A stretch of DNA of 64,000 nt, taken from NCBI GenBank assembly GCA_046056395.1, contig CM100124.1, forward strand, positions 623,968 through 687,967. Reading direction: 5' to 3'. Made by a program: the position numbers and the translations under genes. The notes under the pieces are model-generated. The model saw only the letters and a program-made list of their open reading frames with translations, was not told the origin of the DNA and made no database searches. The stretch's first letter is position 1. Each line of letters begins with the position of its first letter. Positions 8,497-55,420 of this stretch are shown in pieces. This stretch comes from Mugilogobius chulae. Its lineage: Eukaryota.

Positions 8497-8960
8497 CTGA
8501 CTTCAACCTGGTTTAGACCTGGTTTAGGCCTGGTTTAGGCCTGGTTTAGTCCTGGTTTAGACCTGGTTTAGACCTGGTTTAGTCCTGTTATAGTCCTGGT
8601 TTAGTCCTGGTTTAGACCTGGTTTAGTCCTGGTTATAGTCCTGGTTTAGACCTGGTTTAGTCCTGGTTTAGACCTGATTATAGTCCTGGTTTAGACCTGG
8701 TTTAGTCCTGGTTTAGACCTGGTTTAGTCCTGGTTTAGACCTGGTTTAGTCCTGGTTTAGTCCTGGTTTAGTCCTGGTTTAGTCCTGGTTTAGACCTGGT
8801 TTAGACCTGGTTTAGTCCTGGTTTAGTCCTGGTTTAGTCCTGGTTTAGTCCTGGTTTAGTCCTGGTTTAGACCTGGTTTAGTCCTGGTTTAGACCTGGTT
8901 TAGACCTGATTATAGTCCTGGTTTAGACCTGGTTTTAGTCCTGATTTTAGTCCCTACAAC
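8497..8960. repeat. Minisatellite of the 11-mer family (CCTGGTTTAGAC / CCTGGTTTAGTC), ~40 copies
   Basis: Direct tandem 11-mers visible in the sequence. Confidence 0.9.
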
Positions 8961-11594: not shown

Positions 11595-11758
11595 ATGTCT
11601 AAGAAGTCAGGTCCTCGAGTCGTGGACATGGATCTCCCTGTGGACGCCTCCATCATCAGGATTCCTCCTCATCACTACATCCACGTCTGGACCAGAACAC
11701 CAACATCGCCCGCGTGGAGACCGGACCCGCTGACCTACATCAGACAGGACAATGAGAG
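11595..11758 (+). CDS. mvp: Major vault protein, first coding exon (MSKKSGPRVVDMDLPVDASIIRIPPHHYIH…TYIRQDNER)
   Basis: ATG at 11595 after the acceptor CTCCAG|TTC at 11577. It matches vertebrate MVP ([36 protein letters not shown]) and ends AG|GTGAGT. A 14-codon stretch (…[14 protein letters not shown]…) is out of frame relative to the conserved [14 protein letters not shown]. Two compensating 1-nt indels (cacgtCtgg and ccggAcccg) explain this. Confidence 0.8.
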
Positions 11759-12620
11759 GTGAGTTAGACCCAGTTTAGACCTGACTTAGACCTGACTTAG
11801 ACCCACGTTCTGGACCAGAACACCAACATCGCCCGCGTGGAGACCGGCCCGCTGACTTATATCAGACAAGACAATGAGAGGTGAGAAAGACCGGACCTAG
11901 ACCTGACTTAGACCTGGTTTAGACCCACCTACATCAGACAGGACAATGAGAGGTGAGAGAGACCGGACTTAGACCTGGTTTAGACCTGACTCAGACCTAC
12001 GTCCTCGACCAGAACACCAACATCGCCCGCGTGGAGACCGGCCCGCTGACTTATATCAGACAGGACAATGAGAGGTGAGAGAGACCGGACTTAGACCTGA
12101 CTTTAGACCTGGTTTAGACCCACCTACATCAGACAGGACAATGAGAGGTGAGAAAGACCGTACTTAGACCTGACTTAGACCTGGTTTAAACCCACCCACA
12201 TCAGACTGGACAATGAGAGGTGAGAGAGACCGTACTTAGACCTGATTAGACCTGGTTTAGACCCACCTACATCAGACAGGACAATGAGAGGTGAGAGAGA
12301 CCGACTTAGACCTGGTTTAGACCTGGTTTAAACCCACATCAGACAGGACAACGAGAGGTGAGAGAGACCCAGTTTAGACCTGACTTAGACCGCTAGACCT
12401 GGTTTAGACCCACTACATGGACATGAGAGTGAGAAGACCTGACTTAGACCTGGTTGACGGTTTAGACCGGTTTAGACCCACCTACATCGCAGGACAATGA
12501 GAGGTGAGAAAGACCTGACTTAGACCTGGTTTAGACCGAGTTTAAACCCACCTACATCAGACAGGACAATGAGAGGTGAGAAGACTCGACGTAGACCTGG
12601 TTTAGACCTGGTTTGCTATG
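11759..12620. repeat. Tandem array of ~12 copies of the exon-2 3' end plus its splice donor (…ACATCAGACAGGACAATGAGAG|GTGAGA…), embedded in the 11-mer satellite
   Basis: Two long copies (11805-11885, 12000-12080) encode [26 protein letters not shown]|GTGAG in the conserved frame. Shorter copies repeat …TACATCAGACAGGACAATGAGAGGTGAGA…. Confidence 0.85.
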
Positions 12621-13480: not shown

Positions 13481-13554
13481 TACACCTGGAGATGCATTTT
13501 TCTGTCTTCAGAGCCCGTTTCCTCCCGTGGCAAATTAGATTCATGTTTTGTAGT

Positions 13555-13941
13555 GCTATATTCATATTTTCATCTCTCGTGTCAGAGTCCTGTTTCCTCC
13601 CCTGTGGTCTTGTAGTGTTACATTTATATTTTCTCTCGTGTCAGAGTCCTGTTTCCTCCCCTGTGGTCTTGTTGTGTTATATTCAGTATTTCTCTCTTGT
13701 CAGAGTCCTGTTTTCTCCTCTGTGGTCTTGTAGTGTTACATTTATATTTTCTCTCGTGTCAGAGTCCTGTTTCCTCCTCTGTGGCCTTGTAGTGTTACAT
13801 TTATATTTTCTCTCGTGTCAGAGTCCTGTTTCCTCCTCTGTGGCCTTGTAGTGTTATATTTATATTTTCTCTCGTGTCAGAGGCCTGTTTCCTCCTCTGT
13901 AGTCTTGTAGTGTTACATTTATATTTTCTCTCTCGTGTCAG
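13555..13941. repeat. Tandem array (7 copies, ~60-bp unit) of the exon-3 acceptor site plus first ~16 nt of exon 3 (CTCTCGTGTCAG|AGTCCTGTTTCCTCC…)
   Basis: Each unit repeats a polypyrimidine tract, AG, then AGTCCTGTTTCCTCC. The final unit is the real acceptor. Confidence 0.85.
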
Positions 13942-14137
13942 AGTCCTGTTTCCTCCGCTGCGGATGCTGATGGTGCCTCCGCGTCACTACTGCGTCATCC
14001 TCAATCCCGTTGCCCGCGACGACAACGACCAGGTCCAGTTCGACCAATCAGGGCAGGCCAAGCTGAGACACGCCGACCAGGAGATCCGCCTCACCCAGGA
14101 CCCGTTCCCCCTGTACCCCGGGGAGGAGGTCCAGCAG
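13942..14137 (+). CDS. mvp: MVP coding exon (…[65 protein letters not shown])
   Basis: Matches human MVP [23 protein letters not shown]…[21 protein letters not shown]. Acceptor TCAG|, donor CAG|GTATGA. Phase-consistent with the flanking exons. Confidence 0.9.
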
Positions 14138-17099: not shown

Positions 17100-17215
17100 G
17101 TGAGTCTGGACCAGGACTGGACCAGGTCTGGACCAGGTCTGGACCAGGACTGGACCAGGTCTGGACCAGGACTGGACCAGGTCTGGACCAGGTCTGGACC
17201 AGGACTGAAAAAGGA
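17100..17215. repeat. 11-mer minisatellite (GGACCAGGACT / GGACCAGGTCT) starting at the splice donor
   Basis: Tandem 11-mers directly after GTGAGT. Confidence 0.8.
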
Positions 17216-18177
17216 GGACTAAAACAGGACTAAAACACAGAGCCGGATCTAACCTTTTGCTGGCCCTGAGCTAAAATCAGCTTTGGGGCTCTCCAATCTT
17301 AACCTTTATAAGTCAAGCCAAAGCAGCGTTTAACAAAGACTTTTTCATGATGATTTATAACGACACGCAAAGCGACAGACAAAAATAAGAGTAGACTAAA
17401 TCATATTTCTCAGAATAAAGAGATAATGTAAGATCCTGCCCCTGAAACATTTTCCTTAAATTTGGAGTGGGCTATTTTAGACCAACACACAACGCAGAAT
17501 TTTATTAATATACTGTATGATTGCACCTCATCAAGTTTGACTTAGTGTCAGTGTTTCCAAATGAGGCCCCAGCCCTGTCCCTCTCCCTGTGAGCTCCTCC
17601 TCTGTTCTCTCTTCATGTGCTCACGCTGGAACAGCTGATAAACTGCATCATCGCGCTGGACTTTTTGGACAGAAATACTGAAATTTGAAACTTTTTGGGG
17701 ACAAACAGCCTCATGTTTTATGTGGCTTTTAAAAGAATTCAACATAAATCAGCCGACGTTTAAGTACATCAGCTGTTTGTGTTTGTAGTTCAGTCAATAC
17801 TTGTCCTATTGACACTAATAAAGATTGTCTGAGAGCTTATGAGATATACGTAGAACAGGTATTTTTGTCCAAACTGTTCCCAGAGTCTTTGAGTTGGCGG
17901 TCTGTGCTGAGAATGATCAGACACCTGTTTCAGGAGAAGCGGCTGTGATCCTGTTGTGCCTCAAGAACAGAAGAGGGGAGGTCTATCACGTTTAAGCTTG
18001 TATGATTGGTCAAACAGGTATTATGTACAGCCCAAACCAGAGAGTGAAGCCAACAGACCTGATGACTGGACTGACATAAACTCAAAAAACTATCAGCGCT
18101 CAGAAGGCAGGGCCAAACACAGATGAGGGGCCCTAAGCAACTTGTGTAGTCTGCGTATAGGAAGGTCCGGCTCTGCT

Positions 18178-19112
18178 AAAGCAGGACTAAAGCAGGACTA
18201 AACAGGACTAAAACAGGACTTAAACAGGACTAAAACAGGACTTAAACAGGACTAAACCACGTCTAAAACAGGACTAAACCTGGACTGAAGCAGGACTAAA
18301 ACAGGACTAAAACAGGACTTAAACAGGACTAAAACAGGACTTAAACAGGACTAAACCACGTCTAAAACAGGACTAAACCTGGACTAAAAACAGGACTTAA
18401 ACAGGACTAAAACAGGACTTAAACAGGACTAAACCACGTCTAAAACAGGACTAAATCAGGACTAAAACAGGACTTAAACAGGACTAAACCACGTCTAAAA
18501 CAGGATTAAACCTGGACTAAACAGGACTTAAACAGGACTAAACCACGTCTAAAACAGGACTAAATCAGGACTAAAACAGGACTTAAACAGGACTAAAACA
18601 GGACTTAAACAGGACTAAACCATGTCTAAAACAGGACTAAACCTGGACTAAAACAGGACTTAAACAGGACTAAACCACGTCTAAAACAGGACTAAATCAG
18701 GACTAAAACAGGACTTAAACAGGACTAAAACAGGACTTAAACAGGACTAACCACGTCTAAAACAGGACTAAACCTGGACTAAAACAGGACTTAAACAGGA
18801 CTAAAACAGGACTTAAACAGGACTAAACCTGGACTAAAACAGGACTTAAACAGGACTAAAACAGGACTTAAACAGGACTTAAACAGGACTAAACAGGACT
18901 TAAACAGGACTAAACCTGGACTAAAACAGGACTAAAACAGGACTTAAACAGGACTTAAACAGGACTAAACCACGTCTAAAACAGGACTAAACCTGGACTA
19001 AAACAGGACTAAAACAGGACTAAAACAGGATGAAAATGAGACTAAAACAGGACTATATCAGAACTAAAACAAGACTAAAACAGGACTTAAACAGAACTAA
19101 ACCAGTTCTCTC
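18178..19112. repeat. Minisatellite of the 11-mer family, reverse-complement orientation (AAACAGGACTAAAACAGGACTT…), ~0.9 kb, ending ~10 nt before the exon acceptor
   Basis: Tandem units visible. It is the reverse complement of the GTCCTGTTTTAGTCCTG units seen at 16700-16760. Confidence 0.9.
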
Positions 19113-19124
19113 TCTGGTCCGTAG

Positions 19125-19361
19125 AGGGCGCTGCACGTGCGCGCGCTCCGGCCCTTTAAGGACGCGGGGGGGCGTGACCGTCGTACGGGGGAGGAGTGGC
19201 TGGTCACCATGGCGGACCGAGAGGCTCACATCCCGTCGGTGTCGGAGGAGGTGGTCGGCGTCGTCACGGTAACGACCCTGAGCAGCCGCCAGTACTGCGT
19301 CATCCTGGACCCGGTGGACCAGGCCGGCAACCCGCAGCTGGGCAAGAAGAGGGTCGTCAAG
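19125..19361 (+). CDS. mvp: MVP coding exon ([79 protein letters not shown])
   Basis: Matches [79 protein letters not shown]. Acceptor CCGTAG|, donor AAG|GTAACG. Confidence 0.9.
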
Positions 19362-19784
19362 GTAACGGGGAACTGTCACTCAACCTGTTACACCTGTCAT
19401 TATGCACCTGTCAACCACGCTGCATACAAAGGCTTCGTCTTTTTTCTTGAAATTTGTATGACTGTAATTGCACAACTTTTTATTTAATTTTATTCTCGAA
19501 AAAAAATAAGACTTTTTTGCTATGACTTTATTCTCAAAAAAATCTCGCATTTTTGGGGAGTTTTTTCACTTTATTGTCATATAACTACAACTTTTTAAAA
19601 CTTCAACTTTATTCTCAACTTGCAAGAATGATCTCAAAATGTTTCAAGTTCATTCTCGTAGCCCACGCTTTTTTTTTTTTTCTTGGCTCTAATACTCCTA
19701 ATGTTCGTCTGTGTGATTTCCTTCTTTCTTCTCTCTTTGCTTCTCTGCTGTTCTCCTTTGTCTTTCTTCTTCAGGGAGAGAAGT

Positions 19785-22700
19785 TATTCTTCCTTCAGAG
19801 ACAGATGTTTCCTCCTAAAACTTTGCTCCTCTGATGTTCTCGTCTCTTCTTCAGGGAGAGATGTTTCGTCCCTCTCTTTGCTCCTCTGATGTTCTCGTCT
19901 CTTCTTCAGGGAGAGATGTTTCGTCCTCTCTTTGCTCCTCTGATGTTCTCGTCTCTTCTTCAGGGAGAGATGTTTGGTCCTCTCTTTGCTCCTCTGATGT
20001 TCTCGTCTCTTCTTCAGGGAGAGATGTTTCGTCCTCTCTTTGCTCCTCTGATGTTCTCGTCTCTTCTTCAGGGAGAGATGTTTCGTCCTCTCTTTGCTCC
20101 TCTGATGTTCTCGTCTCTTCTTCAGGGAGAGATGTTTCGTCCTCTCTTGCTCCTCTGATGTTCTCGTCTCTTCTTTCAGGGAGAGATGTTTCGTCCCTCT
20201 CTTTACTTCCTTGAAGTGGCTCTCTGATTCTGTTCTCGTCTCTTCTTCAGGGAGAGATGTTTCGTCCTCTCTTGCTCCTCTGATGTTCTCGTCTCTTCTT
20301 CAGGGAGAGATGTTTCGTCCTCTCTTTGCTCCTCTGATGTTCTCGTCTCTTCTTCAGGGAGAGATGTTTCGTCCTCTCTTTGCTCCTCTGATGTTCTCGT
20401 CTCTTCTTCAGGGAGAGATGTTTCGTCCTCTCTTTGCTCCTCTGATGTTCTCGTCTCTTCTTCAGGGAGAGATGTTTCGTCCTCTCTTGTCCTCTGATGT
20501 TTCGTTCTTCTTCAGGGAAGATGTTTGTCCTCTCTTTGCTCCTCTGATGTTCTCGTCTCTTCTTCAGGGAGAGATGTTTGGTCCTCTCTTTGCTCCTCTG
20601 ATGTTCTCGTCTCTTCTTCAGGGAGAGATGTTTGGTCCTCTCTTTGCTCCTCTGATGTTTCGTCTCTTCTTCAGGGAGAGATGTTTGGTCCTCTCTTTGC
20701 TCCTCTGATGTTCTCGTCTCTTCTTCAGAGAGAGATGTTTGGTCCTCTCTTTGCTCCTCTGATGTTCTCGTCTCTTCTTCAGAGAGAGATGTTTCGTCCT
20801 CTCTTTGCTCCTCTGATGTTCTCGTCTCTTCTTCAGAGAGAGATTTCGTCCTCTCTTTGCTCCTCTGATGTTCTCGTCTCTTCTTCAGGGAGAGATGTTT
20901 CGTCCTCTCTTTGCTCCTCTGATGTTCTCGTCTCTTCTTCAGGGAGAGATGTTTCGTCCTCTCTTTGCTCCTCTGATGTTCTCGTCTCTTCTTCAGGGAG
21001 AGATGTTTGGTCCTCTCTTTGCTCCTCTGATGTTCTCGTCTCTTCTTCAGGGAGAGATGTTTGGTCCTCTCTTTGCTCCTCTGATGTTCTCGTCTCTTCT
21101 TCAGGGAGAGATGTTTCGTCCTCTCTTTGCTCCTCTGATGTTCTCGTCTCTTCTTCAGGGAGAGATGTTTCGTCCTCTCTTTGCTCCTCTGATGTTCTCG
21201 TCTCTTCTTCAGAGAGAGATGTTTCGTCCTCTCTTTGCTCCTCTGATGTTCTCGTCTCTTTTTCAGGGAGAGATGTTTCGTCCTCTCTTTGCTCCTCTGA
21301 TGTTCTCGTCTCTTCTTCAGGGAGAGATGTTTGGTCCTCTCTTTGCTCCTCTGATGTTCTCGTCTCTTCTTCAGGGAGAGATGTTTCGTCCTCTCTTTGC
21401 TCCTCTGATGTTCTCGTCTCTTCTTCAGGGAGAGATGTTTCGTCCTCTCTTTGCTCCTCCTGATGTTCTCGTCTCTTCTTCAGGGAGAGATGTTTCGTCC
21501 TCTCTTTGCTCCTCTGATGTTCTCGTCTCTTCTTCAGGAGAGATGTTTCGTCCTCTCTTTGCTCCTCTGATGTTCTCGTCTCTTCCTCAGAGAGAGATGT
21601 TTCGTCCTCTCTTTGCTCCTCTGATGTTTCTCGTCTCTTCTTCAGGGAGAGATGTTTCGTCCTCTCTTTGCTCCTCTGATGTTCTCGTCTTCTTCAGGAA
21701 GAGATGTTTCGTCCTCTCTTTGCTCCTCTGATGTTCTCGTCTCTTCTTCAGGGAGAGATGTTTCGTCCTCTCTTTGCTCCTCTGATGTTCTCGTCTCTTC
21801 TTCAGGGAGAGATGTTTCGTCCTCTCTTTGCTCCTCTGATGTTCTCGTCTCTTCTTCAGGGAGAGATGTTTCGTCCTCTCTTTGCTCCTCTGATGTTCTC
21901 GTCTCTTCTTCAGGGAGAGATGTTTCGTCCTCTTTGCTCCTCTGATGTTCTCGTCTCTTCTTCAGGAGAGATGTTTCGTCCTCTCTTTGCTCCTCTGATG
22001 TTCTCGTCTCTTCTTCAGGAGAGATGTTTCGTCCTCTCTTTGCTCCTCTGATGTTCTCGTCTCTTCTTCAGGGAGAGATGTTTCGTCCTCTCTTTGCTCC
22101 TCTGATGTTCTCGTCTCTTCTTCAGGGAGAGATGTTTCGTCCTCTCTTTGCTCCTCTGATGTTCTCGTCTCTTCTTCAGGGAGAGATGTTTCGTCCTCTC
22201 TTTGCTCCTCTGATGTTCTCGTCTCTTCTTCAGGAGAGATGTTTCGTCCTCTCTTTGCTCCTCTGATGTTCTCGTCTCTTCTTCAGGAGAGATGTTTCGT
22301 CCTCTCTTTGCTCCTCTGATGTTCTCGTCTCTTCTTCAGGGAGATGTTTCCTCTCTTTGCTCCTCGATGTTCTCGTCTCTTCTTCAGAGAGAGATTTTCG
22401 TCCTCTCTTTGCTCCTCTGATGTTCTCGTCTCTTCTTCAGGGAGAGATGTTTCGTCCTCTCTTTGCTCCTCTGATGTTGTCGTCTCTTCTTCAGGGAGAG
22501 ATGTTTGGTCCTCTCTTTGCTCCTCTGATGTTCTCGTCTCTTCTTCAGGGAGAGATGTTTCGTCCTCTCTTTGCTCCTCTGATGTTCTCGTCTCTTCTTC
22601 AGGGAGAGATGTTTCGTCCTCTCTTTGCTCCTCTGATGTTCTCGTCTCTTCTTCAGGGAGAGATGTTTCGTCCTCTCTTTGCTCCTCTGATGTTCTCGTC

Positions 22701-22965
22701 TCTTCTTCAGGGAGAGATGTTTCGTCCTCTCTTTGCTCCTCTGATGTTCTCGTCTCTTCTTCAGGGAGAGATGTTTCGTCCTCTCTTTGCTCCTCTGATG
22801 TTCTCGTCTCTTCTTCAGGGAGAGATGTTTGGTCCTCTCTTTGCTCCTCTGATGTTCTCGTCTCTTCTTCAGGGAGAGATGTTTCGTCCTCTCTTTGCTC
22901 CTCTGATGTTCTCGTCTCTTCTTCAGAGAGAGATGTTTCGTCCTCTCTTTGCTCCTCTGATGTAG
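19785..22965. repeat. 3.2-kb tandem array (~60 copies, 52-bp unit) duplicating the last ~52 nt of the intron, i.e. the 3' splice acceptor of the next exon: …TCTCGTCTCTTCTTCAG|GGAGAGATGTTTCGTCC…
   Basis: The unit closely matches the genuine acceptor region at 23041-23100 (GGGAGATGTTTCGTCCCCTCGTTGCTCCTTTAATGTCCTTGTCTTCCTTCTTCAG|GGGGAAAAG). All the long ORF-track ORFs at 19834-22985 are read through this repeat. Confidence 0.9.
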
Positions 22966-23095
22966 ACTGCTATTTTAGTTTGTAACTTTTACTAAACAAA
23001 AAGGCTTTGTACATGACAGTAACACACAGGCACACTTAAGGGGAGATGTTTCGTCCCCTCGTTGCTCCTTTAATGTCCTTGTCTTCCTTCTTCAG

Positions 23096-23221
23096 GGGGA
23101 AAAGTCGTTCTTCCTTCAGCCCGGAGAACGTCTGGAGAACGGGATCCAGGACGTGTTTGTTCTGTCTGAGGAGGAAGGTTTGGTGCTGAGAGCTGTGGAG
23201 GCGTTCGACGACGTGGACCCG
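23096..23221 (+). CDS. mvp: MVP coding exon ([42 protein letters not shown])
   Basis: Matches [34 protein letters not shown]…. Acceptor CTTCAG|, donor CCG|GTAAGA. Confidence 0.9.
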
Positions 23222-23720
23222 GTAAGAACCAGGACTGAACCTGGACTAAACCTGGATCTGAACCAGGACTAAACCAGGTAGGAACCAGGGACTGAACCTG
23301 GACTATACCTGGACTTGAACTGAGACTTGAACCAGGAATGAACCAGGTAAGAACCAAGACTGAACCTGGACTTGAACCAGAGAGTGAACCAGGACTGAAC
23401 CAAGACTAAACCCGGTAAGAACCAGGACTGGACCTGGACTAAACCTGGACTTGAACTGAGACTAAACAAGGTAAGGACCAGGACTGAAACCAAGACTAAA
23501 TCAAGATCTGAACCAAGACCTGGGCCAAGACGTGAACAGAGACTGAACCTGGACTGAACCAGGACTGAACCAGGTCTGAACCAAGACTTGAACCAGGACT
23601 AAACCTAGACTTGAACCAGAGAGTGAACCAGGACTAAACTAAGACCTGAACCAAGACCAAACCAGGTAAGAACCAGGACTGAACCTGGACTATACCTGGT
23701 AAGAACGAGGACTAGAGTGG
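23222..23720. repeat. 11-mer family minisatellite (GAACCAGGACTGAACCTGGACTAAACC…) beginning at the splice donor
   Basis: Tandem units directly after GTAAGA. Confidence 0.85.
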
Positions 23721-31690: not shown

Positions 31691-31925
31691 GTTCGCGCGG
31701 TGATCGGACACACCTACATGCTGACCCAGGACGAGGAGCTTTGGAACAAGATTCTCCCGGCCAACGTGGAGGCTCTGCTGGCGTCTCCTCTGGACCCTCT
31801 GGCCGATCGCTCCGACAGGAACCGGGACGCGCAGCAGCTTCCGCGAGACAAAACCCGCGTGGTGTCGTACCGATGCCTCACAACGCCGCTGTGGCAGGTG
31901 TACGACTACAGGAGAAGAAAGCACG
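31691..31925 (+). CDS. mvp: MVP coding exon ([61 protein letters not shown]…; the 3' end is frame-disrupted)
   Basis: Matches [30 protein letters not shown]…DPLADR…[27 protein letters not shown]. The last ~50 nt (cgaTGCCTCACAACGCCGCTGTGGCAGGTGTACGACTACAGGAGAAGAAAGCACG|GTGGGT) differ from the conserved frame by three 1-nt indels, net -1. The downstream tandem copies read …[17 protein letters not shown]|GT in the correct frame. Coordinates within 31681-31741 are ±1 nt, because my reading of that displayed line and the ORF track disagree by one position. Confidence 0.75.
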
Positions 31926-32430
31926 GTGGGTTTAACACGTTAACACGCTTTAGGTACGTCACAACGCGGCTGTGCAGGTGTACGACTACAGAGAGACGGT
32001 TTAACACGCTTTAGTACGTCACAACGCGGCTGTGCAGGTGTACGACTACAGGGAGAAGAAAGCACGGTGGGTTTAACACGTTTAACACGCTTTAGTACGT
32101 CACAACGCCGCTGTGCAGGTGTACGACTACAGGGAGAAGAAAGCACGGTGGGTTTAACACGTTTAACACGCTTTAGTACGTCACAACGCGGCTGTGCAGG
32201 TGTACGACTACAGAGAGAAGAAAGCACGGTGGGTTTAACACGTTTAACACGCTTTATTACGTCACAACGCCGCTGTGCAGGTGTACGACTACAGAGAGAA
32301 GAAAGCTCGGTGGGTTTAACACGTTTAATACGCTTTATTACGTCACAACGCCGCTGTGCAGGTGTACGACTACAGGGAGAAGAAAGCACGGTGGGTTTAA
32401 CACGCTTAACACGCTTTAGTACGTCACAAC
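31926..32430. repeat. Tandem array (~6 copies, ~80-bp unit) duplicating the exon 3' end plus splice donor plus the first ~35 nt of the intron (GTCACAACGCCGCTGTGCAGGTGTACGACTACAGGGAGAAGAAAGCACG|GTGGGTTTAACACGTTTAACACGCTTTAGTAC)
   Basis: Direct tandem copies; each retains a GTGGGT donor and the conserved MVP codons. Confidence 0.9.
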
Positions 32431-33359: not shown

Positions 33360-34331
33360 GGTGGTCATACATGTTATTACACGTGTTATTACATGTGTTA
33401 TAACTGTTGTTTCAGGTTAGAGATGGTCGTCGTGTTATTACATGTGTTATAAAGTTGTTACAGGTTCAGAGCTGGTCGTACGTGTTATTACATGTGTTAC
33501 AACTGTTGTTTCAGGTTCAGAGATGGTCGTACGTGTTATTACATGTGTTACAACTGTTGTTTCAGGTTCAGAGATGGTCGTACGTGTTATTACATGTGTT
33601 ACAACTGTTGTTTCAGGTTCAGAGATGGTCGTACGTGTTATTACATGTGTTACAACTGTTGTTACAGGTTCAGAGATGGTCGTACGTGTTATTACATGTG
33701 TTTATAACTGTTATTACAGGGTTGTTTTCGGCCCGGAGCTGGTCGTACGTGTTGTTAACATGTGTTATAACTGTTGTTACAGAGTGGTTTTCGGCCCGGA
33801 GCTGGTCGTACGTGTTATTACATGTGTTATAAACTGTTGTTTCAGGTTCAGAGCTGGTCGTACGTGTTATTACATGTGTTATAACTGTTATTACAGGGTT
33901 GTTTTCGGCCCGGAGCTGGTCGTACGTGTTATTACATATGTTATAACTGTTATTACAGAGTGGTTTTTGGCTCGTAGCTGGTCGTACGTGTTATTACATG
34001 TGTTATAACTGTTATTACAGAGTGGTTTTGGGCTCGTAGCTGGTCGTACGTGTTGTTACATGTGTTTATAACTGTTATTACAGAGTGGTTTTCGGCCCGG
34101 AGCTGGTCGTACGTGTTATTACAAGTGTTATACCTGTTGTTACAGAGTGGTTTTTGGCTCGTAGCTGGTCGTACGTGTTATTACATATGTTATAACTGTT
34201 ATTACAGAGTGGTTTTTGGCTCGTAGCTGGTCGTACGTGTTATTACATGTGTTATTACTCTTGTTTCAGAGTGGTTTTCGGCCCGGAGCTGGTCGTATGT
34301 GTTATTACATGTGTTATTTCTGTTATTACAG
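33360..34331. repeat. Tandem array (~16 copies, ~60-bp unit) duplicating the acceptor site plus first ~25 nt of the next MVP exon (…TGTTATTACAG|AGTGGTTTTCGGCCCGGAGCTGGTC…)
   Basis: Later units contain the exact exon start AGTGGTTTTCGGCCCGGAGCTGGTCGTAC. Earlier units are diverged (…TTTCAGGTTCAGAGATGGTCGTAC…). The last unit is the real acceptor. Confidence 0.9.
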
Positions 34332-34529
34332 AGTGGTTTTCGGCCCGGAGCTGGTCATGCTCGGTCCGGACGAACAGTTCACGGTTCTCTCTCTCTCCGG
34401 GGACAAACCGAAGCGAGCCAACGTGATCAAAGCCGTGTGTCTGCTGCTCGGACCGGACTTCTGCACCGACGTCATCACCATAGAAACGGCCGACCACGCC
34501 CGCCTCCAGCTGCAGCTTGCCTACAACTG
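34332..34529 (+). CDS. mvp: MVP coding exon ([66 protein letters not shown])
   Basis: Near-identical to human [66 protein letters not shown]. Acceptor TTACAG|; the donor is the non-canonical-looking TG|GTACTC. Confidence 0.9.
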
Positions 34530-35830: not shown

Positions 35831-36042
35831 AACTCAAACCGGATCATCTGCTCGGCCGTGTTCGGTTTCGACGAGAAGGTCCACATCCGGCCGTCGCTGG
35901 AGTTCGCTCAGAACCGTCTGGTCATCAGCAGCGTCGACATCCAGTCTGTGGAGCCTGTGGACCAGAGAACCAGAGACGCCCTGCAGAAGAGCGTCCAGCT
36001 GGCCATCGAGATCACCACCAACTCTCAGGAGGCGGCTGCACG
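35831..36042 (+). CDS. mvp: MVP coding exon ([70 protein letters not shown][R])
   Basis: Matches NSARIIRTAVFGFE…[44 protein letters not shown]. Acceptor CGTCAG|, donor CG|GTGAGG. Confidence 0.9.
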
Positions 36043-36480
36043 GTGAGGAGAGAGGGAGGAGAGGAGAGGAGAGAGGAGGGAGGGAGGTAGGGAGGGAGGA
36101 GAACCAGAGACGCCCTGCAGAAGAGCGTCCAGCTGGCCATCGAGATCACCACCAACTCTCAGGAGGCGGCCGCACGGTGAGGAGAGAGGGAGGGAGGGAG
36201 GGAGGGAGGAGGAGAGGAGAGAGGGAGGAGAGAGGGAGGAGAGAGGAGAGGGTGGAGGAGAGAGGGAGGAGGGAGAGAGAGGGAGGATAGAGTAGAGAGA
36301 GAGGAGAGGAGGGAGGGAGGAGAGAGGGAGAGAGAACCAGAGACGCCCTGCAGAAGAGCGTCCAGCTGGCCATCGAGATCACTACGAACTCTCAGGAGGC
36401 GGCCGCACGGTGAGGAGAGAGGGAGGAGAGAGGGAGGGAGGAGAACCAGAGACGCCCTGCAGAAGAGAGTTCACCTGGCC
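36043..36480. repeat. Intron start carrying 2.5 extra tandem copies of the exon 3' end plus donor (GAACCAGAGACGCCCTGCAGAAGAGCGTCCAGCTGGCCATCGAGATCACCACCAACTCTCAGGAGGCGGCCGCACG|GTGAGG), separated by purine-rich (GAGGGAGG)n
   Basis: Copies at 36101-36183 and 36336-36418, plus a partial copy at 36446-36480 that runs directly into the next exon's acceptor. Confidence 0.85.
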
Positions 36481-36641: not shown

Positions 36642-36759
36642 GTGAGAACCAGGACTGAACCAGGACTAAAACAGGACTAAAACAGGACTGAACCAGGACT
36701 AAAACAGGACTGCACCTGGACTAAAACAGGACTGCACCAGGACTAAAACAGGACTTACC

Positions 36760-37599: not shown

Positions 37600-38523
37600 G
37601 ATATATATTTTTGTCAGTGCGGCTTGCGGTTGTCGAGCTTTATTAATATATTTTGTGTTTTGTCAGTGCTGCTGTGGAGCTTTAATAATAATATATTTTG
37701 TGTTTTGTCAGTGCTGCTGTGGAGTTTTAATAATAATATATTGTGTGTTTTATCAGTGCTGCTGTGGAGTTTTAATAATAATATATTGTGTGTTTTATCA
37801 GTGCTGCTGTGGAGTTTTAATAATAATATATTTTGTGTTTTATCAGTGCTGCTGTGGAGCTTTAATAATAATATATTTTGTGTTTTATCAGTGCGGCTGT
37901 GGAGTTTTTATAATAATAATATATTTTGTGTTTTATCAGTGCTGCGGTGGAGCTTTAATAATAATATATTTTGTGTTTTATCAGTGCTGCTGTGGAGCTT
38001 TAATAATAATATATTTTGTGTTTTATCAGTGCTGCTGTGGAGTTTTAATAATAATATATTTTGTGTTTTGTCAGTGCTGCTGTGGAGCTGTTATAATAAT
38101 ATATTTTGTGTTTTATCAGTGCTGCTGTGGAGCTTTAATAATAATATATTTTGTGTTTTGTCAGTGCTGCTGTGGAGCTTTAATAATAATATATTGTGTG
38201 TTTTATCAGTGCTGCGGTGGAGCTTTAATAATAATATATTTGTATTTTATCAGTGCTGCTGTGGAGCTTTAATAATAATATATTTTGTGTTTTATCAGTG
38301 CTGCTGTGGAGCTTTAATAATAATATATTTTTGTGTTTTGTCAGTGCTGCTGTGGAGCTTTAATAATAATATATTTTGTATTTTATCAGTGCTGCTGTGG
38401 AGCTTTAATAATAATATATTTTGTGTTTTGTCAGTGCTGCTGTGGAGCTTTTATAATAATATATTTGTATTTTATCAGTGCTGCGGTGGAGCTTTAATAA
38501 TAATATATTTTGTATTTTATCAG
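37600..38523. repeat. Tandem array (~20 copies, 46-bp unit) duplicating the acceptor site plus first ~15 nt of the next MVP exon (…GTGTTTTATCAG|TGCTGCTGTGGAGCTTTAATAATAATATATTTT…)
   Basis: The unit is the real acceptor TATTTTATCAG|TGCTGCGGTGGAG (38513-38536). The ORF-track ORFs at 37598-38559 read through this repeat. Confidence 0.9.
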
Positions 38524-38650
38524 TGCTGCGGTGGAGAGCACCGGAGCGGCCAAAGCTGAAGCTCAGTCCAGAGCAGAAGCAGCTCGGATCCAGGGAGAAG
38601 CCGCTGTGGAGGAGGCCAAGCTGAAGGCCGAGGCCCAGAGGATCGAGGCT
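38524..38650 (+). CDS. mvp: MVP coding exon ([42 protein letters not shown])
   Basis: Matches [42 protein letters not shown]. Donor GCT|GTGAGT. Confidence 0.9.
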
Positions 38651-38731: not shown

Positions 38732-38920
38732 GAGGCGGAGCTTCAGCGTCTGGCCCAGGCTCGTGAGCAGGAGCTGAGTTATAAGAAGAACATGGACCTT
38801 CTGGAGGTGGAGAAGCAGCAGAAACTGTCCCAGATCGAGACCACCAAGTTCAGCGAGCTGGTGAAGAGCCTGGGCGCCGACACGCTGAGGGAGATGGCCA
38901 GAGCGGGGCCGGAGCTGCAG
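38732..38920 (+). CDS. mvp: MVP coding exon (EAELQRLAQAREQELSYKKNMDLLEVEKQQKLSQIETTKFSELVKSLGADTLREMARAGPELQ)
   Basis: Matches [63 protein letters not shown]. Acceptor TTTAG|, donor CAG|GTGAGC. Confidence 0.9.
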
Positions 38921-39039
38921 GTGAGCGCGCACAAACAACACGCACAAAAACACGCACACAAACAAGCAGACGAAACAAGAGAATCACAGGACACAACACG
39001 CACAAAACACGAATACACAGACACCGCACGAGGACAAAC

Positions 39040-39095
39040 ACGCTGAGGGAGATGGCCAGAGCGGGGCCGGAGCTGCAGGTGAGCGCGCACAAACG
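39040..39095. repeat. Duplicate of the preceding exon's 3' end plus donor (CGCTGAGGGAGATGGCCAGAGCGGGGCCGGAGCTGCAG|GTGAGCGCGCACAAACGACACGCACAC)
   Basis: Exact copy of 38884-38945. Confidence 0.85.
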
Positions 39096-40499
39096 ACACG
39101 CACACACTGCTTTTCCTGCCCTGGGCCTCGGGGAATCTATCACCATTTGCAGTCTGACCTCCTGTTAAGCTTCAGTATGATGTGAATGCTTCACAGATGC
39201 TTTTTCTAGAAGAGAATAAAAACCAAATGAATAGAGAGGGGACTAAATAAAAGGTGTTTTCGCACATTAAAGTAACAGGAACTGCGTACCCACATTCCCT
39301 TAGTCCCTGTTTAGTCAGACGAACTACCCTGTTCCCATGTTTGTGTTCACACAGCAACAGTTTGTGAAAGTGGGCCATATTCTGGAACATTTAAGTAGGT
39401 CATTAAGTTGTCTTAGGAAAACAAAACACTTAAGTATAATGTACAAAAGCTAAAAAAAAAAAATTTAAAAATCACTGAAATTAACAATACAGCGCAATTG
39501 TTCACTGTTATTCCTAAAAATAGTTATTTTGGGAGCTACAGATTTAAGTATTTTTCTCGAGGATAAGAATGTTTATCTAAATGTCATAATCTATAAAACA
39601 TGTTTCCAAACAGAGTTAGTGTTGTAAATGTGCTTGTCACCAAAAGGTTCCTGGTCTGACTGAAAGTACCTGCCTCAAAGCAGGAGCTAAAAAAAGTCCC
39701 TAAAGTGTGGCCCCAGTCCATAGTTCCTGGTCTGTGTGAACACGCCTAAAAAGGGGACTGGAACTAAAAAAAAGTACTAGGAACTGAAAAAGTTGCTACA
39801 GTGGGCAAAAGCCCAAGTTTTGCCCCAAGTACCCAGAATTTGGTGCTGCGCCCCTGCTCCTTTAGGCCCAGCACAGACTGAGCACTCTCACAGGAACTGA
39901 TTATTTGAGAAGGAAAAAGGGCTGCAGAGGTTCCAGAACGTGAGCGCCTTTCATACAACCTCACCACAACCAGGACTAGTTTGCTTTGTGTTTGAGTGTG
40001 ATGTAGAGTGAGGCGTTTACATGTGAGTGTGGAGGGTCTGTCACTCACTGGACTGTGTGTGAGCTCATCTCTGCTCTCTCTGTGACTAAAACTGACTCCG
40101 CCCACAACTGCACCTCAAACAGAATCGCAAAAGTGGGAGATGCAGGAGGCCTTTAAAGAGACGCCCAGGTGGGTGTGAACAGACTTTGATTGACAGCACC
40201 AAATATGGACAGTGAGCTTGTGAGTGATGTGAGTTTTGTGTGGGAGCGATCCTGACGTGAGGAGAAGTTCACAGCTCTGAGGCTGTGCAGCACAAGTCTA
40301 GTTTCTTACTCACACGTCAAGATTCTTTTTTGTTAATTAACTTTGCAGACACATGTATGAAGCCTTTGCTTTAGCCACGTAAACACATGAGCTCCTGTGA
40401 GTATTTTCTAAAATTGAAATTGAGAAAAATTAAACAAAGAATCGAGGATCAAACCTGCAAACCTTTGCACCTCACAGCTCACGTTTATTTAACTGAGCC

Positions 40500-41427: not shown

Positions 41428-41556
41428 GTGAAGATGCTCCAGGCTCTGGGTCTCAAGTCGACTCTGATCACAGACGGATCCTCCCCCATCAACCTGTTCA
41501 CCACCGCCAACGGCCTGCTGGGGGCGCTGCCGGGGCCGGGACAGGGAAACGAATAG
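41428..41556 (+). CDS. mvp: MVP last coding exon ([42 protein letters not shown])
   Basis: Matches [38 protein letters not shown]…. Acceptor GTCCAG|; TAG stop at 41554-41556. Confidence 0.9.
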
Positions 41557-42395
41557 AGAGGGACCGGGACAGAGACTGGGACAGGGACAGGACTATGACT
41601 AGAGCAAGACCTGGACAGTGAAACGAATAGAGAGGGACCGGGACAGGACAAGAGCGAGACCGAGACAAGACTAAAGCAAGACCTGCAGAGACCAGGACAG
41701 TGAAACGAATAGAGAGGGACCGGGACAGGACTAGAGCAGGACCAGGACAGGACTAAAGCAGGACCTCAGAGGACCTGCCAGGGCCGAGACAGAGACAGGA
41801 TTAGGACTAGAGCAGGACCAGGGACAGGGACTAAAGCAAGACCTGCAAAAAACGGGACCGGGACAGGACAAGAGCAGGTCCAGGGACAGGGACTGGGACA
41901 GGACTAAAGCGGGACAGGGACAGGACTAGACGAAGACTGGGACAAGACCTGCCAGGGCCGAGACAAGGACAGGACTAAAGCAGGACTAGAGCAGGACCTC
42001 ACAGGACTGGGACAGGACTAGAGCAGGACTGAGACAGGACCTGCTGGGACAGGGACAGGACTAAAACAGGACCAGGACAGAACTAAAGCAAGACCTGCAA
42101 GAACCGGGACAGGGACAGGACTAAAGCAGAGGCAGGACTGGGGCAAGACTAGAGCAGGACCAGGACAGGACCTGCTGGGACCGGGACAAGGACTGGGACC
42201 GGGACAGGACAAGAGCGAGACCGAGACAAGACTAAAGCAGGACCTGGAGAGACCGGGACAAGACAAGGACTAGGACTAAAGCAGGACCTCAGAGAACCTG
42301 CAAGGACCAAGACCGGGACTGGGACATAGACTGGGACAAGAACCGGGACAGGGACATAGACTGGGACAGGGACAGGACTAGAGCAGGACTTGGTA
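41557..42395. repeat. Irregular ~11-mer minisatellite (GGGACAGGACTAAAGCAGGACC…) filling the presumptive 3'UTR, with three extra copies of the stop-codon region (CAGTGAAACGAATAGAGAGGGACCGGGACAGG)
   Basis: Tandem units. GAAACGAATAGAGAGGGACCGGGACAG recurs at 41620, 41695 and 41557. Confidence 0.85.
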
Positions 42396-43681: not shown

Positions 43682-44335
43682 TGTGGTTCAATCCTGGCTC
43701 AGGCCTGGTTTAGACCTGGTTTAGACCTGGTTTAGACCTGGTTTAGACCTGGTTCAGACCTGGTTTAGACCTGGTTTAGACCTGGTTTAGACCTGGTTTA
43801 GTCCTGGTTTAGACCTGGTTCAGCCCTGGTTTAGACCTGGTTTAGACCTGGTTTCGACCTGGTTCAGACCTGGTTCAGACCTGGTTCAGACCTGGTTTAG
43901 ACCTGGTTTAGTCCTGGTTTAACCTGTTTAGACCTGGTTCAGACCTGGTTCAGACCTGGTTTAGACATGGTTTAGTCCTGGTTTAGACCTGGTTTAGACC
44001 TGGTTTAGACCTGGTTCAGACCTGGTTCAGACCTGGTTTAGACATGGTTTAGTCCTGGTTTAGACATGGTTTAGACCTGGTTTAGACCTGGTTTAGACCT
44101 GGTTTAGACCTGGTTCAGACCTGGTTTAGACATTAGACCTGGTTCAGACCTGGTTCAGACCTGGTTTAGACCTGGTTTAGACCTGTTTAGACCTGGTTTA
44201 GACCTGGTTTAGTCCTGGTCAGACCTGGTTTAGACCTGGTTTAGACCTGGTTTAGACCTGGTTTAGTCCTGGTTTAGTCCTGGTTCAGACCTGGTTTAGA
44301 CCTGGTTTAGACCTGGTTTAGACCTGGTTCAGCCC
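43682..44335. repeat. 11-mer minisatellite (CCTGGTTTAGAC / CCTGGTTCAGAC) x ~60
   Basis: Direct tandem copies. Confidence 0.9.
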
Positions 44336-45639: not shown

Positions 45640-45933
45640 TTACTACCTCTCCTCTTCCCTCTCTCTCTCTTTCCCTCTCTTCTCTCTCTCCTCCTCTCTC
45701 TCTTCTCTCTCTCCCTCTCTTTCCCTCTCTTCTCTCTCTCCTCCTCTCTCTCTCTCTCCTCCTCCTCCCTCTCTCTCTCTCTCTCCCTCCTCCTCTCCTC
45801 TCTCTCTCTCTCTCCCTCCTCCTCTCTCTCCTCTCTCCTCTCTCTCCCTCCTCCTCTCTTCTCTCTCCTCCTCTCTCTCTCTCTCTCCTCTCCTTCTCTC
45901 TCTCTCTCCTCCTCTCTCTCTCTCTCCTCCTCC

Positions 45934-45968
<35 letters not shown>

Positions 45969-46468
45969 CCTCCTCCTCTCTCTCTCTTCTCTCTCTCTCT
46001 CTCCCTCCTCCTCTCTCTCCTCTCTCTCCCTCCTCCTCTCTCTCTCTCTCCCTCCTCTCTCTCTCTCTCCTCCTCCTCCTCTCTCTCTCTCTCTCTCCTC
46101 TCTCTCTCCCTCCTCCTCTCTCTCTCTCTCTCTCTCTCCCTCTCTCTCTCCTCTCTCTCTCTCTCTCTCCCCCCTCTCTCTTCCATCTCTCCTTCAGTTT
46201 CACTTCTTCCTCTTTCTCTTATTTTTCCTCCTTTCTCTCTCCTCCTCCACTTGCTCAGTCCCTTCCTAACGCTCCCCCTTTCTTCTCTCTCTTTCTTTCT
46301 TCCTGCAGCACCATAGATCCCCCTTTGTTTCTCCTCCCTCCCTTCCTCTCTCTCTCTCTTTTACATTCACAGTGGAACCATAGCCTCCTCTTCCTTCTCC
46401 CGTTCCCTCTTTCCCTGCAGACACAGTAGATCTGCAGCTCCTCCCCCTTCTCTCTCCCATCCCTCCCT

Positions 46469-46504
<36 letters not shown>

Positions 46505-47350
46505 TGCTCTGAGTGAATCCGCAGCCTCCAGTGTCTTTCTTTTACAGTCACAGTTCATCCTCCTCGTCTTCCCTCTCTCTCTCTCTCTCTCTTCTCTTGA
46601 ATCCACAGCCTGCTCTTCTCTCTCTCCTACAGTGAACCCTCCCCCGATGTCTCCGTCTCTTCCTCTCCTTCTTTTTGAGTCTACAACCTGCTCTCTCTCT
46701 TTCTCATACAATACTCCTTTCTCTCCCTTTTCCTGCCTTTTCTTCCTCAAGGTAAAACCACACCATCTCTCTCTCTTTCTCTCTCTCTTACATTCACGGT
46801 GTCTTCCTTTCTCTCTTCCACTGAATCTGCAACCTCTTCTCTCTCGCTCTTTCTTACTTTTGCATTGGCCCCTTCTTCTCTTCTTCTCTCTATCTGTCTC
46901 CCTCCCTCTTCCCTCTCTCTCTTTCATTTACAGTAGCCCCTCCCTCCCTCTCTTTTCTTCGCTCTCATTTACAATAGCTTTTCCTTCTCTCTCTGTCATC
47001 CCTCCCTCTTCTCTCCCTCCCTCCTCTCTGTCTCTCTCTCTCTTAGTAGCCCTCCCTCTCTCTTCCCTCTCTCTCTTCTCATTTTACCAGTAGCCCTCCC
47101 TCTCTCCCTCCTCCCTCCCTCCCTCCTCTCTTATCTCTCTCTCTCCTCTTTCTCTTAGTAGCACCTCCCTCCCTCTTCTCTTCTCTCTCTCCATCCCTGA
47201 ATACGCAGCCTCCTCCTCTTCTCTCCCTCTCTCTTTCTCTCCCTCTCATTTACAGTAGCCCTTCCTCTCTCTCTCCTTCTCTTAACTCTCTCTCTCTCTT
47301 AGTAGCCCCTCCCTCTCTCCCTCATCCTTGAATCCGCAGCCTCTCACTTT
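45640..47350. repeat. 1.7-kb polypyrimidine low-complexity tract ((CT)n / (CTC)n / CCTCC on + strand; (GA)n-rich on - strand)
   Basis: Visible composition. The ORF-track ORFs at 45515-47093 (poly-S/L/P on + strand, poly-E/R on - strand) read through it. Confidence 0.95.
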
Positions 47351-53600: not shown

Positions 53601-53760
53601 TTCATCTTGACTTCGGTCTTGGTTTAGTCTTGACTTCAGTCTTGGTTTAGTCTTGTCTTCGGTCTTGGTTTAATCTTGACTTCAGTCTTGGTTTAGTCTT
53701 GACTTCGGTCTTAGTTTCATCTTGACTTCAGTCTTGGTTTAATCTCGGTCTAGGTCTGTA
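47695..53760. repeat. ~6-kb tandem array of a 23-bp unit (CTTGGTTTAATCTTGACTTCGGT / …TAGTCTTGACTTCGGT), ~260 copies with frequent 1-2 nt indels
   Basis: Direct tandem copies throughout. Confidence 0.95.
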
Positions 53761-54654
53761 TACTTGTTTGTGTGTAAATTGTCTTTTTCGAGTAATTTTA
53801 TTTGTCAATTTATTCATAATTGCTGTAAATTATGATCAAACAAAAATAATATGAGGTAGAATAACTTTGGTTTGACTGTGTTTATGATGTTTTTACACAT
53901 TTGTCCCAACGCAAAATTTCCCAAAGGGTTTCTTACTTCAGAGTTGTGTATTTGACTTTTCACTTTCAGAAAGTTACACAGTGCACCTTTAAAGCTGTAA
54001 AAATAAGTATTTATTTGTTCAACATCAAAGTCATTTCAATACGATAATAATATAATAAAGCAATATACACAATATTCATTCTTACTTTGTTCAATCTCAG
54101 AAAAGCACAAACACTGCAAAGATAAATGATAACAAACAGGAGCGTCGGACTGGGAAGGGGGGTGAAGGTACGGGATGGGTATTTTATCGATGCCGCTTTG
54201 GACCGCTGTACCTTTAAACGCTGCGTTAACTTTGTTCCTGCGCTGCAATCTTTACTTTCTGTTTCTTAACCTTTACCCAAACCCCTTTTTCTAAACTTAC
54301 CCATGACCCCAACCCTGTTCCTAATCCGTTTTCCTAAACTAATGATCGTCCCCTGGACCCGACTGGCATTTACCCAGACCGTCTCAGGGCCAGTTAGATG
54401 TTGTTATTTGGTGTAAATAAAAACTTTGTGTCGATGTTGTTTTTTACGTGTCACTTCATCACTTTCATGTCCTGTGAAAGTTATCTGTTGTTTGTCATCG
54501 AAACTGAAAATATTGTCTGTCTGCAGTTTCAAACATCTCAAAATGAGCTTTGTTTTGTTTCACTTCAGTCCTCTCGGTGGAGCTGCCTCCTAATGGAGCT
54601 CTGCAGCCAAAAAAATTATAAAAAGTGTAACTTGATCGATAAAAAGTAAGCCTA

Positions 54655-55420
54655 GGGGTACTCCTGGTTCAGGTCACATGACGAGGGGACTCCTGATACA
54701 GGTCATGTGACGAGGGGACTCCTGGGACAGGTCATGTGACGAGGGGACTCCAGGTACAGGTCATGTGATGAGGGGACTCCTGGTACAGGTCATGTGACGA
54801 GGGCACTCCTGGTACAGGTCATGTGACGAGGGGACTCCTGGTTCAGGTCATGTGATGAGGGGACTCCTGGTACAGGTCATGTGATGAGGGGACTCCTGGT
54901 ACAGGTCATGTGATGAGGGGACTCCTGGTACAGGTCATGTGATGAGGGGACTCCTGGTACAGGTCATGTGACGAGGGGACTCCTGTACAGGTCATGTGAC
55001 GAGGGGACTCCTGGTTCAGGTCATGTGATGAGGGACTCCTGGTACAGGTCATGTGACGAGGGGACTCCTGGTCAGGTCATGTGATGAGGGACTCCTGGTA
55101 CAGGTCATGTGATGAGGGGACTCCTGGTACAGGTCATGTGATGAGGGGACTCCTGGTACAGGTCATGTGATGAGGGGACTCCTGGTACAGGTCATGTGAG
55201 AGGGGACTTGGTACAGGTCATGTGACGAGGGACTCCTGGTACAGGTCAAAGGGACTCCTGGTACAGGACATGTGACGAGGGACTCCTGGTACAGGTCATG
55301 TGATGAGGGGACTCCTGGTACAGGTCATGTGATGAGGGGACTCCTGGTACAGGTCATGTGACGAGGGACTCCTGGTACAGGTCATGTGACGAGGGGACTC
55401 CTGGTACAGGTCTGCAGCCA
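54655..55420. repeat. Minisatellite, 29-bp unit (GTCATGTGACGAGGGGACTCCTGGTACAG) x ~26
   Basis: Direct tandem copies. Confidence 0.95.

Follow-up and report, generated by a model that had tools for sequence, protein, structure and literature searches.

A probable mirage-type minisatellite of about 58 acceptor-bearing units within an intron of the major vault protein gene in a teleost-like vertebrate

Tandem repeats that span the boundary between an exon and an intron were reportedly described in the amphioxus Adh3 gene by Canestro et al. in 2002, who are said to have named them 'mirages'. Mirages were later found in the amphioxus globins BflGb6 and BflGb9 (Ebner et al. 2010, PMC3087553) and in PGBD5 and TnC (PMC3902484). 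They occur on the acceptor side and on the donor side, and the splice sites within them are duplicated without aberrant mRNA (PMC3087553, PMC3902484). In human F7, the exon 7 donor lies in the first unit of a 37-bp variable number tandem repeat (VNTR) of intron 7 and is repeated there 5-9 times (Borensztajn et al. 2006, PMC1557585); only the most upstream, exon-contiguous donor is used, though the pseudo-sites are functional (PMC1557585). Here we describe an array in intron 6 of MVP, the gene for the major vault protein, in a stretch of 64 kb from Mugilogobius chulae (contig CM100124.1 of assembly GCA_046056395.1, positions 623,968 to 687,967). This whole stretch is referred to as the window, and all positions are counted from its first letter. 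The array repeats a complete 3' splice-site module about 58 times. We think it likely that it is a lineage-specific intronic minisatellite of the mirage type, one that is probably neutral or slightly deleterious.

It is a matter of debate how the spliceosome selects one of several equivalent 3' splice sites, and scanning, exon definition and competition have each been invoked. Natural loci with repeated authentic splice sites are rare, and the best-studied of them, human F7, concerns donors.

MVP occupies approximately 11595-41548 of the window on the + strand and is of teleost-like vertebrate type. We located its 16 coding exons by tblastn with human MVP as probe and then refined the boundaries by eye. 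The probe was used for exon location only, and the identity of the gene is confirmed separately by Pfam and database matches. Three features frame the array (here and below, a slash marks a splice junction or its repeated equivalent):

19125..19361, + strand: MVP exon 6, ending ..KKRVVK, with donor AAG/GTAACG at 19362, supported by tblastn, translation, Pfam and a dN/dS of 0.04-0.08 against three relatives.
19362..23095, + strand: intron 6, 3734 nt, phase 0, 85% tandem repeat.
23096..23221, + strand: MVP exon 7, with donor CCG/GTAAGA, supported by tblastn and translation.

The exon limits at 19361 and 23096 had been proposed in a preliminary description of this DNA, and they are confirmed by translation and by the joined exon 6 and exon 7 peptide, which matches Vault/Vault_2 in Pfam.

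Tandem Repeats Finder (TRF) delimits a tandem array at 19788-22963 with a period of 54, 58.7 copies, 95-97% matches and 1-3% indels, and also gives higher-order rows of 108 and 162 bp. Split at YYYCAG/R, the array contains 58 acceptor-bearing units, a copy number that, like the unit lengths, is approximate given the homopolymer-type indels in the assembly. The preliminary description had counted about 60 consecutive branch-point, polypyrimidine and AG units upstream of 23096, which agrees with these complete modules; its unit of 52 nt must be corrected to the TRF period of 54. From 5' to 3', the region is built as follows:

19721..19774, + strand: diverged 5' boundary copy, with 42/60 aligned columns identical, ending in the pseudo-acceptor TTTCTTCTTCAG.
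19775..19798, + strand: exon-7-derived remnant GGAGAGAAGTTATTCTTCCTTCAG, 24 nt, of which 20/24 are identical to the first 24 nt of exon 7.
19799..22963, + strand: 54-bp minisatellite of 58 acceptor-bearing units and a final partial unit, with consensus GGAGAGATGTTTCGTCCTCTCTTTGCTCCTCTGATGTTCTCGTCTCTTCTTCAG.
22965-23039, + strand: unique A-rich spacer of 75 nt between the array and the terminal copy; a TAG at its start closes the array frame.
23040..23095, + strand: terminal diverged unit of 56 nt, the region of the authentic 3' splice site; 47/56 positions match the consensus.

The units are well formed as acceptors. The consensus has a CTGAT branch-point motif that fits CTRAY exactly and places its A 21 nt before the AG; the tract is 83% pyrimidine, the acceptor reads CAG/G and the AG-free zone is 48 nt long. 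Of the 58 units, 25 are identical to this consensus. A 30-nt module, GCTCCTCTGATGTTCTCGTCTCTTCTTCAG, is matched 51 times at no more than three mismatches, 47 times exactly, where shuffled sequence would give 0; the exact junction TCTCTTCTTCAG/GGAGAGATG occurs 41 times. All 51 matches to the module in the 64-kb window lie inside the array and on the + strand, and a dispersed repeat or transposable-element fragment was rejected on this ground. One unit departs in length: the tenth, at 20180-20250, has 71 nt as the result of a 17-nt insertion (around ACTTCCTTGAAGTGGCTCTCTGATTCTG) that brings a second CTGAT, and TRF therefore splits its 54-bp row into two blocks. Downstream of the CAG the units continue as GGAGAGATGTT, compared with GGGGAAAAGTC in exon 7.

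The authentic acceptor, whose AG ends at 23095, belongs to the same family of sequences. Its candidate branch point, TTAAT, stands at -23; its tract is 89% pyrimidine, and its AG-free zone extends over 50 nt. Identity to the consensus unit is 84% for this terminal boundary copy and 70% for the 5' boundary copy; at the 5' edge of the array stand two older pseudo-acceptors, with AG ending at 19774 and 19798. The statement that the array duplicates the end of the intron is thus right in that the terminal 56 nt is a copy of the unit, and needs qualifying in that only 47 of the 56 positions agree and 75 nt of spacer intervene. By simple measures (branch point, tract, AG-free zone) most other real MVP acceptors are weaker than the array units. 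Since the units equal or surpass most of the gene's genuine acceptors in these respects, the earlier suggestion that the locus is a natural test of repeated acceptors is well founded.

The array provides acceptors without donors. Judged by a splice-site position weight matrix, which was built on vertebrate consensus frequencies and is a rough yardstick only, no credible 5' splice site was found in the array: the best GT context scores 1.6 bits, against 2-12 bits for real donors. The four GT contexts that recur are GAT/GTTTCG, GAT/GTTCTC, TTC/GTCCTC and CTC/GTCTCT. We rejected a decoy exon with both a 3' and a 5' site on the basis of the 1.6-bit maximum. Units read CAG/GGAGAG or CAG/AGAGAG and GT never directly follows the AG, which excludes a recursive splice site of the form (Y)nCAG/GTRAGT.

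Whether decoy acceptors could nevertheless be used to make repeat-containing MVP isoforms, as the preliminary description had proposed, can be judged from the reading frame. The unit amounts to 18 codons and is open in the frame of exon 6 (GEMFRPLFAPLMFSSLLQ), the one feature that invites such a proposal, but 18 open pyrimidine-rich codons are unremarkable, with a probability of about 0.4 by chance per frame. As assembled, an in-frame stop is reached from every decoy acceptor of the array before the exon 7 donor. An array free of indels would still close with CTG ATG TAG; the TAG, at 22963-22965, would precede the last exon junction by more than 50 nt. Pfam returned no match for the unit translation. 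Products of the decoy acceptors would be substrates of nonsense-mediated decay (NMD), not protein isoforms, and with no donor within the array we regard productive isoforms as scarcely credible. A coding VNTR or a set of cassette exons was discarded on the same three observations of missing donor, stops from all decoys and lack of a Pfam match. Two wider searches were also negative: an exact scan of the JGI metagenome collection with a 35-nt stretch of the unit gave 0 matches, and an Rfam scan of the whole window at gathering thresholds found no family.

The structure of the array points to its origin. Its 5' boundary copy includes 24 nt derived from exon 7 (20/24 identical), a segment also kept in relatives, and the founding duplication must therefore have spanned the boundary between intron 6 and exon 7. 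Within the array the variants CGTCC/GGTCC and GGAGAG/AGAGAG (here the slash separates alternatives) occur in runs. Runs of variants, identical units and diverged boundary copies are together what slippage or unequal exchange with concerted evolution usually leaves behind, and we read them in that way here.

Comparison with relatives suggests that the expansion is confined to this lineage. The orthologous intron 6 is 87 nt in Logan contig L002 and 121 nt in L001, with exon 6 amino-acid identities of 90% and 94%, respectively; 94% is also the best exon 6 identity in a protein search with exons 6 and 7. No minisatellites were found in the relatives' contigs L001, L002 and L003, which are distant from this locus (dS of about 1-1.5). 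On these comparisons the array appears to be lineage-specific. Four MVP introns in the window are still 78-98 nt long.

We counted near-copies of every MVP splice junction across the window. Eight junctions lie in arrays of this kind, that of intron 6 with exon 7 and seven others:

11681..12614, + strand: exon 1 donor array; the real donor at 11758 is followed downstream by ..ACAATGAGAG/GTGAG.. in 8 copies, 2 of which reproduce the 3' part of exon 1 almost in full.
13548..13960, + strand: exon 2 acceptor array, 59 bp x 6.9; 6 decoys of TTTTCTCTCTCGTGTCAG/AGTCCTGT precede the real site at 13942.
31878..32430, + strand: exon 9 donor array, 81 bp; 5 downstream donor copies, ../GTGGGT.
33372..34356, + strand: exon 10 acceptor array, 51- and 62-bp units; 9 decoys of ..TTATTACAG/AGTGGTTT precede the real site at 34332.
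35966..36444, + strand: exon 12 donor array; 2 extra donor copies, with an EAAA-bearing segment in 4 copies in total.
37644..38536, + strand: exon 14 acceptor array, 45 bp x 19.8; 18 decoys of ..TTTTATCAG/TGCTGCGG precede the real site at 38524.
38900..39132, + strand: exon 15 donor duplication; a second ..LREMARAGPELQ/GTGAGC copy 158 nt downstream.

The arrangement follows one rule. Exons 2, 7, 10 and 14 each have an upstream array with the real acceptor as its last copy; exons 1, 9, 12 and 15 each have a downstream array with the real donor as its first. The arrays of exons 1, 2, 9, 10 and 14 are contiguous with their authentic junctions. Altogether the gene has approximately 93 decoy acceptors and 22 decoy donors, and of these roughly 115 decoys only one, the exon 2 decoy acceptor at 13822, gives an in-frame, stop-free product as assembled (+120 nt, 40 amino acids). 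A pseudo-donor VNTR like that of F7 intron 7 does not describe the intron 6 array, which repeats an acceptor that differs from the authentic site; it does describe exons 1 and 9, where pseudo-donors near-identical to the authentic donor of the first unit number 8 and 5.

An association of arrays with junctions may follow simply from short introns. Among in-gene arrays with a period of at least 30, seven of nine contain a junction. We simulated seed duplications of 45-80 bp and counted as tolerated those that were intron-only or that spanned a single junction. With introns of 90-120 nt, which agree in length with those of the relatives and with the four unexpanded introns, 54-93% of tolerated duplications span a junction, compared with 4-8% for introns of 2 kb. 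Because short introns reproduce the junction bias, the association requires nothing beyond a high rate of minisatellite birth. Tandem repeats make up 36% of the window.

We therefore favour, as a likely history, a sequence of events that would begin with an ancestrally short intron of about 100 nt and a tandem duplication across its boundary with exon 7. The oldest copy would survive at 19721-19798, with its 24 nt of exon sequence. A 54-bp sub-unit, made up of about 11 nt of exon start together with branch point, pyrimidine tract and AG, would then have been amplified to about 58 copies by replication slippage or unequal exchange, which would also have kept the copies homogeneous while the two boundary copies escaped. 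Amplification would have worked on the 3' signals of the intron itself, and for this reason every unit would be born a well-formed decoy acceptor. The same process would have struck at least seven other MVP junctions, since selection is expected to remove duplications internal to exons, and those of 45-80 bp in a gene with introns of about 100 nt would then cluster at junctions.

A quite different reading is that the array is a functional decoy, in which the 58 modules bind U2AF and the U2 small nuclear ribonucleoprotein (snRNP) and engage the exon 6 donor non-productively, in the manner of a decoy splice site or decoy exon. The consequence would be intron 6 retention or NMD, and an MVP dosage that depends on copy number. 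Every unit does keep an intact CTRAY branch point, pyrimidine tract and CAG, and decoy splice sites promote the retention of large introns (PMC7373989). Exon 7 is moreover flanked on its other side by strong decoy donors, in the following array:

23226..23713, + strand: 11-bp-family array that starts 5 nt into intron 7 and holds six decoy donors (CAG/GTAAGA and similar).

These donors score 8.4-11.1 bits by the same rough matrix, compared with 8.8 for the real exon 7 donor. Recent amplification with concerted evolution, however, accounts for the homogeneity of the units; the array has no 5' splice site and so forms no decoy exons; and it is absent from two relatives. The seven other junction arrays and the many non-genic arrays in a window that is 36% tandem repeat speak for a mutational process, not a designed element. 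Predicted RNA structure also fails to separate the decoys from the real site. Nothing in the analysis demonstrates a function, and we consider the functional decoy quite unlikely.

Two candidate ways of silencing the units were considered and set aside. GGAGAGA blocks are predicted to pair with the pyrimidine tracts (z -1.6, -2.7), and the real site is predicted to form a similar hairpin (z -0.9); since the predicted structures would not separate decoys from the real site, we do not use them as evidence. For PTB-type repression, UCUU and CUCUCU motifs are found in each unit and in the authentic tract as well, so the sequence by itself cannot discriminate.

The state of the gene bears on whether splice competition matters at all. 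If the locus were a decaying MVP pseudogene or a non-functional copy, competition would be irrelevant and arrays could accumulate freely. The repeat load is extreme, and the assembled exons contain local frameshifts, in exon 1 (11690-11740), exon 3 (~14316), exon 8 (~30278) and exon 9 (~31890-31915). All of these are single-base length changes in short runs of G or C, some in compensating pairs. Because the array units carry scattered indels of the same kind, typical of unpolished long reads, the frameshifts are most likely assembly errors of that origin, worst where exons sit in repeats. In-frame stop codons are absent from the exons, and the inspected splice sites are GT..AG in sensible context in 29 of 29 cases. 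The ratio dN/dS is 0.04-0.09 against three relatives, with dS saturated, and MVP appears to be under purifying selection. We read the gene as functional despite the assembled frameshifts, and find decay very unlikely.

The same indels raise the question of whether the array, or its size, is an artefact, that is, a mis-assembly or over-expansion of a much shorter repeat. Indel errors are clearly present in the assembly, and the collections searched contained no independent copy of this species' sequence. Against an artefact stand the ordered internal variant structure and the distinct, diverged boundary copies. Eight arrays with different units, in addition, share the same biologically sensible topology, and natural precedents exist. 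An artefact is in our view highly improbable.

If the array is a genuine minisatellite of the mirage type, the problem becomes how the authentic acceptor is chosen. AG scanning starts at an independently specified branch point, and the stretch from there to the 3' splice site is AG-free (PMC1431707). The authentic 50-nt AG-free zone and its TTAAT lie wholly downstream of the array, and because of this, scanning from the functional branch point cannot reach the array. The earlier expectation that scanning would land on many of the copies thus falls away, and the real question is one of choice among modules of branch point and pyrimidine tract, not of scanning. Correct mRNA would come only from the last, exon-contiguous copy. 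Exon definition probably picks this copy, which alone has conserved exon sequence and a real 5' splice site within 126 nt. With the authentic branch point predicted in the last ~65 nt of the intron, AG scanning would meet only the AG at 23094-23095. Decoys have no downstream donor; mis-spliced transcripts would gain a premature stop, and NMD should remove them.

Several points weigh against a neutral, mirage-type array whose decoys stay silent. The array does not adjoin the authentic junction, and the proposed history does not account for the 75 nt of unique spacer. Relatives at dS of about 1-1.5 are too distant to date the array, and ancestral intron length is directly documented for intron 6 only, and loosely for introns 8 and 9 in L002. 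Four frameshifted exons could signal an MVP copy that was inactivated recently. That the 23096 acceptor alone is used is an assumption drawn from protein conservation. Finally, among duplicated-acceptor experiments cited in PMC1557585, some favoured the proximal copy and another group found the opposite; in view of this conflict, theory does not guarantee the silence of upstream decoys.

A bolder proposal, which we think unlikely, goes further. The array might not be inert: loading of U2AF and U2 snRNP on up to 58 decoy modules could slow intron 6 splicing or divert it into retained or NMD-targeted transcripts, such that array length, varying as a VNTR, would set MVP dosage in this lineage, and many genes with ancestrally short introns might carry junction arrays. 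If this were true, the genome would be a natural, massively parallel experiment on the choice among identical tandem splice sites.

The repeats of the window extend beyond the junction arrays. An 11-bp family is represented by CCTGGTTTAGT, by a complement of the AGGACTAAAAC type and by the variants GTCTGGACCAG and GAACCAGGACT. It is present in both orientations, within MVP as well as beyond it, and includes a 6-kb array with 23/46-bp higher-order structure; the family may be a satellite or derive from the internal repeat of a transposable element. Within MVP, its arrays begin 5 nt after the donors of exons 4, 5, 7 and 13 and end 20-28 nt before the acceptors of exons 4 and 6, where only minimal splice signals stay unique. 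Arrays of this family, and one other at the end of the gene, are located as follows:

8507-8953, 17104-17207, 18176-19105, 23226-23713, 36646-36755, 43693-44329, 47700-53753, 55814-55968 and 56318-56420: 11-bp family arrays.
41539-41771: 82-bp x 3 array, rich in GGGACAGG, which starts just before the MVP stop TAG at 41546-41548 and runs into the region of the 3' untranslated region.

Downstream of MVP (45647-47200, 54654-55412, 60474-63915) tandem repeats amount to 56% of the sequence, and include (CT)n of ~530 bp and arrays of 29 bp x 27, 53 bp x 13, 23 bp x 59, 32 bp x 9 and 21 bp x 13. Because this region is also rich in tandem arrays, minisatellite birth is not specific to MVP. The window ends inside a second gene, of which an SRCR-domain exon (PF00530, E 5e-9) lies at 63585-63998 on the minus strand. 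A tandem repeat of 42 bp x 4 (63744-63915), in frame, encodes VSELQGAPFTQDSA midway through the domain; it looks like a coding minisatellite or a partial-exon duplication. Between the two genes, at 57117-59911 on the minus strand, several open reading frames of 100-170 amino acids resemble by eye a degraded retroelement, and they gave no Pfam match at E <= 0.01.

With about 93 decoy acceptors and 22 decoy donors set around conserved, selected exons, the locus bears directly on splice-site choice. In every case the copy that adjoins the exon is the correct site; for acceptors this copy lies at the end opposite to the one that a 5'-to-3' scan would pick. The simulation offers a simple quantitative reason for mirages, in that introns of about 100 nt make most tolerated duplications of 50-80 bp cross a junction. 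Junction arrays are also traps for gene predictors and splice-site models, and the indel errors warn that exons embedded in repeats are poorly polished in long-read assemblies.

Of the described systems, amphioxus mirages come closest, and by its structure the intron 6 array would be classed with them, with the spacer as a caveat. It is a head-to-tail repeat with a unit of minisatellite size (TRF period 54); it combines an intronic splice signal with exon-derived sequence, although the exon part of the amplified unit is short, at about 11 nt; and it shows concerted evolution within the array, with boundary copies outside the homogenisation. The MVP arrays and amphioxus mirages have in common the head-to-tail arrangement, with intronic splice signals and adjacent exon sequence in the unit, the existence of acceptor-side and donor-side versions, units within 10-160 bp and the presence of several arrays per gene. 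In both, concerted evolution is accompanied by boundary copies that escape it, and the authentic site is the exon-contiguous copy. The differences are that the MVP host is a teleost-like vertebrate and not a cephalochordate, that the intron 6 array has about 58 copies compared with 2-6 in the globin mirages, and that it has a 75-nt spacer and retains only ~11 nt of exon in its unit. Normal splicing and length polymorphism were shown for amphioxus, whereas the MVP array is known from the sequence of one haplotype. We found no report of mirage-type arrays in teleosts in the literature searched, the coverage of which was incomplete and is not proof of absence.

Two further systems resemble the array in part. 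Like the decoy splice sites and decoy exons of PMC7373989, it consists of intronic, unused sites that could engage intron-terminal sites non-productively. Decoy exons combine a 3' site with a 5' site, and conservation is frequent among them; the MVP array, in contrast, is acceptor-only, apparently lineage-specific and part of a general repeat expansion. The 'OVERMEGA' megasatellites (bioRxiv 10.1101/2021.07.19.452908) share tandem amplification across exon-intron junctions in vertebrates. Their units are at least 90 nt, comprise whole exons and add protein modules, whereas the MVP units are junction fragments of 45-81 bp that are expected to be non-coding.

The F7 VNTR is likewise a minisatellite that repeats an authentic splice site in a vertebrate gene, and its pseudo-sites, silent though functional, have served as a natural model of splice-site choice. 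The MVP donor arrays of exons 1, 9, 12 and 15 have exactly its layout. The intron 6 array differs in that F7 repeats a 5' splice site 5-9 times, whereas here a 3' module is repeated about 58 times in units 84% identical to the authentic one. Scanning oriented 5' to 3', as in F7, would pick the wrong (first) copy of an acceptor, and a different rule must therefore apply to acceptors. Known mirages and VNTRs have 2-9 copies, compared with about 58 in intron 6, and the density in MVP reaches eight arrays in one gene. The array is best explained as an unusually large element of a known type, one sign of how rampantly minisatellites are born in a gene that was ancestrally compact.

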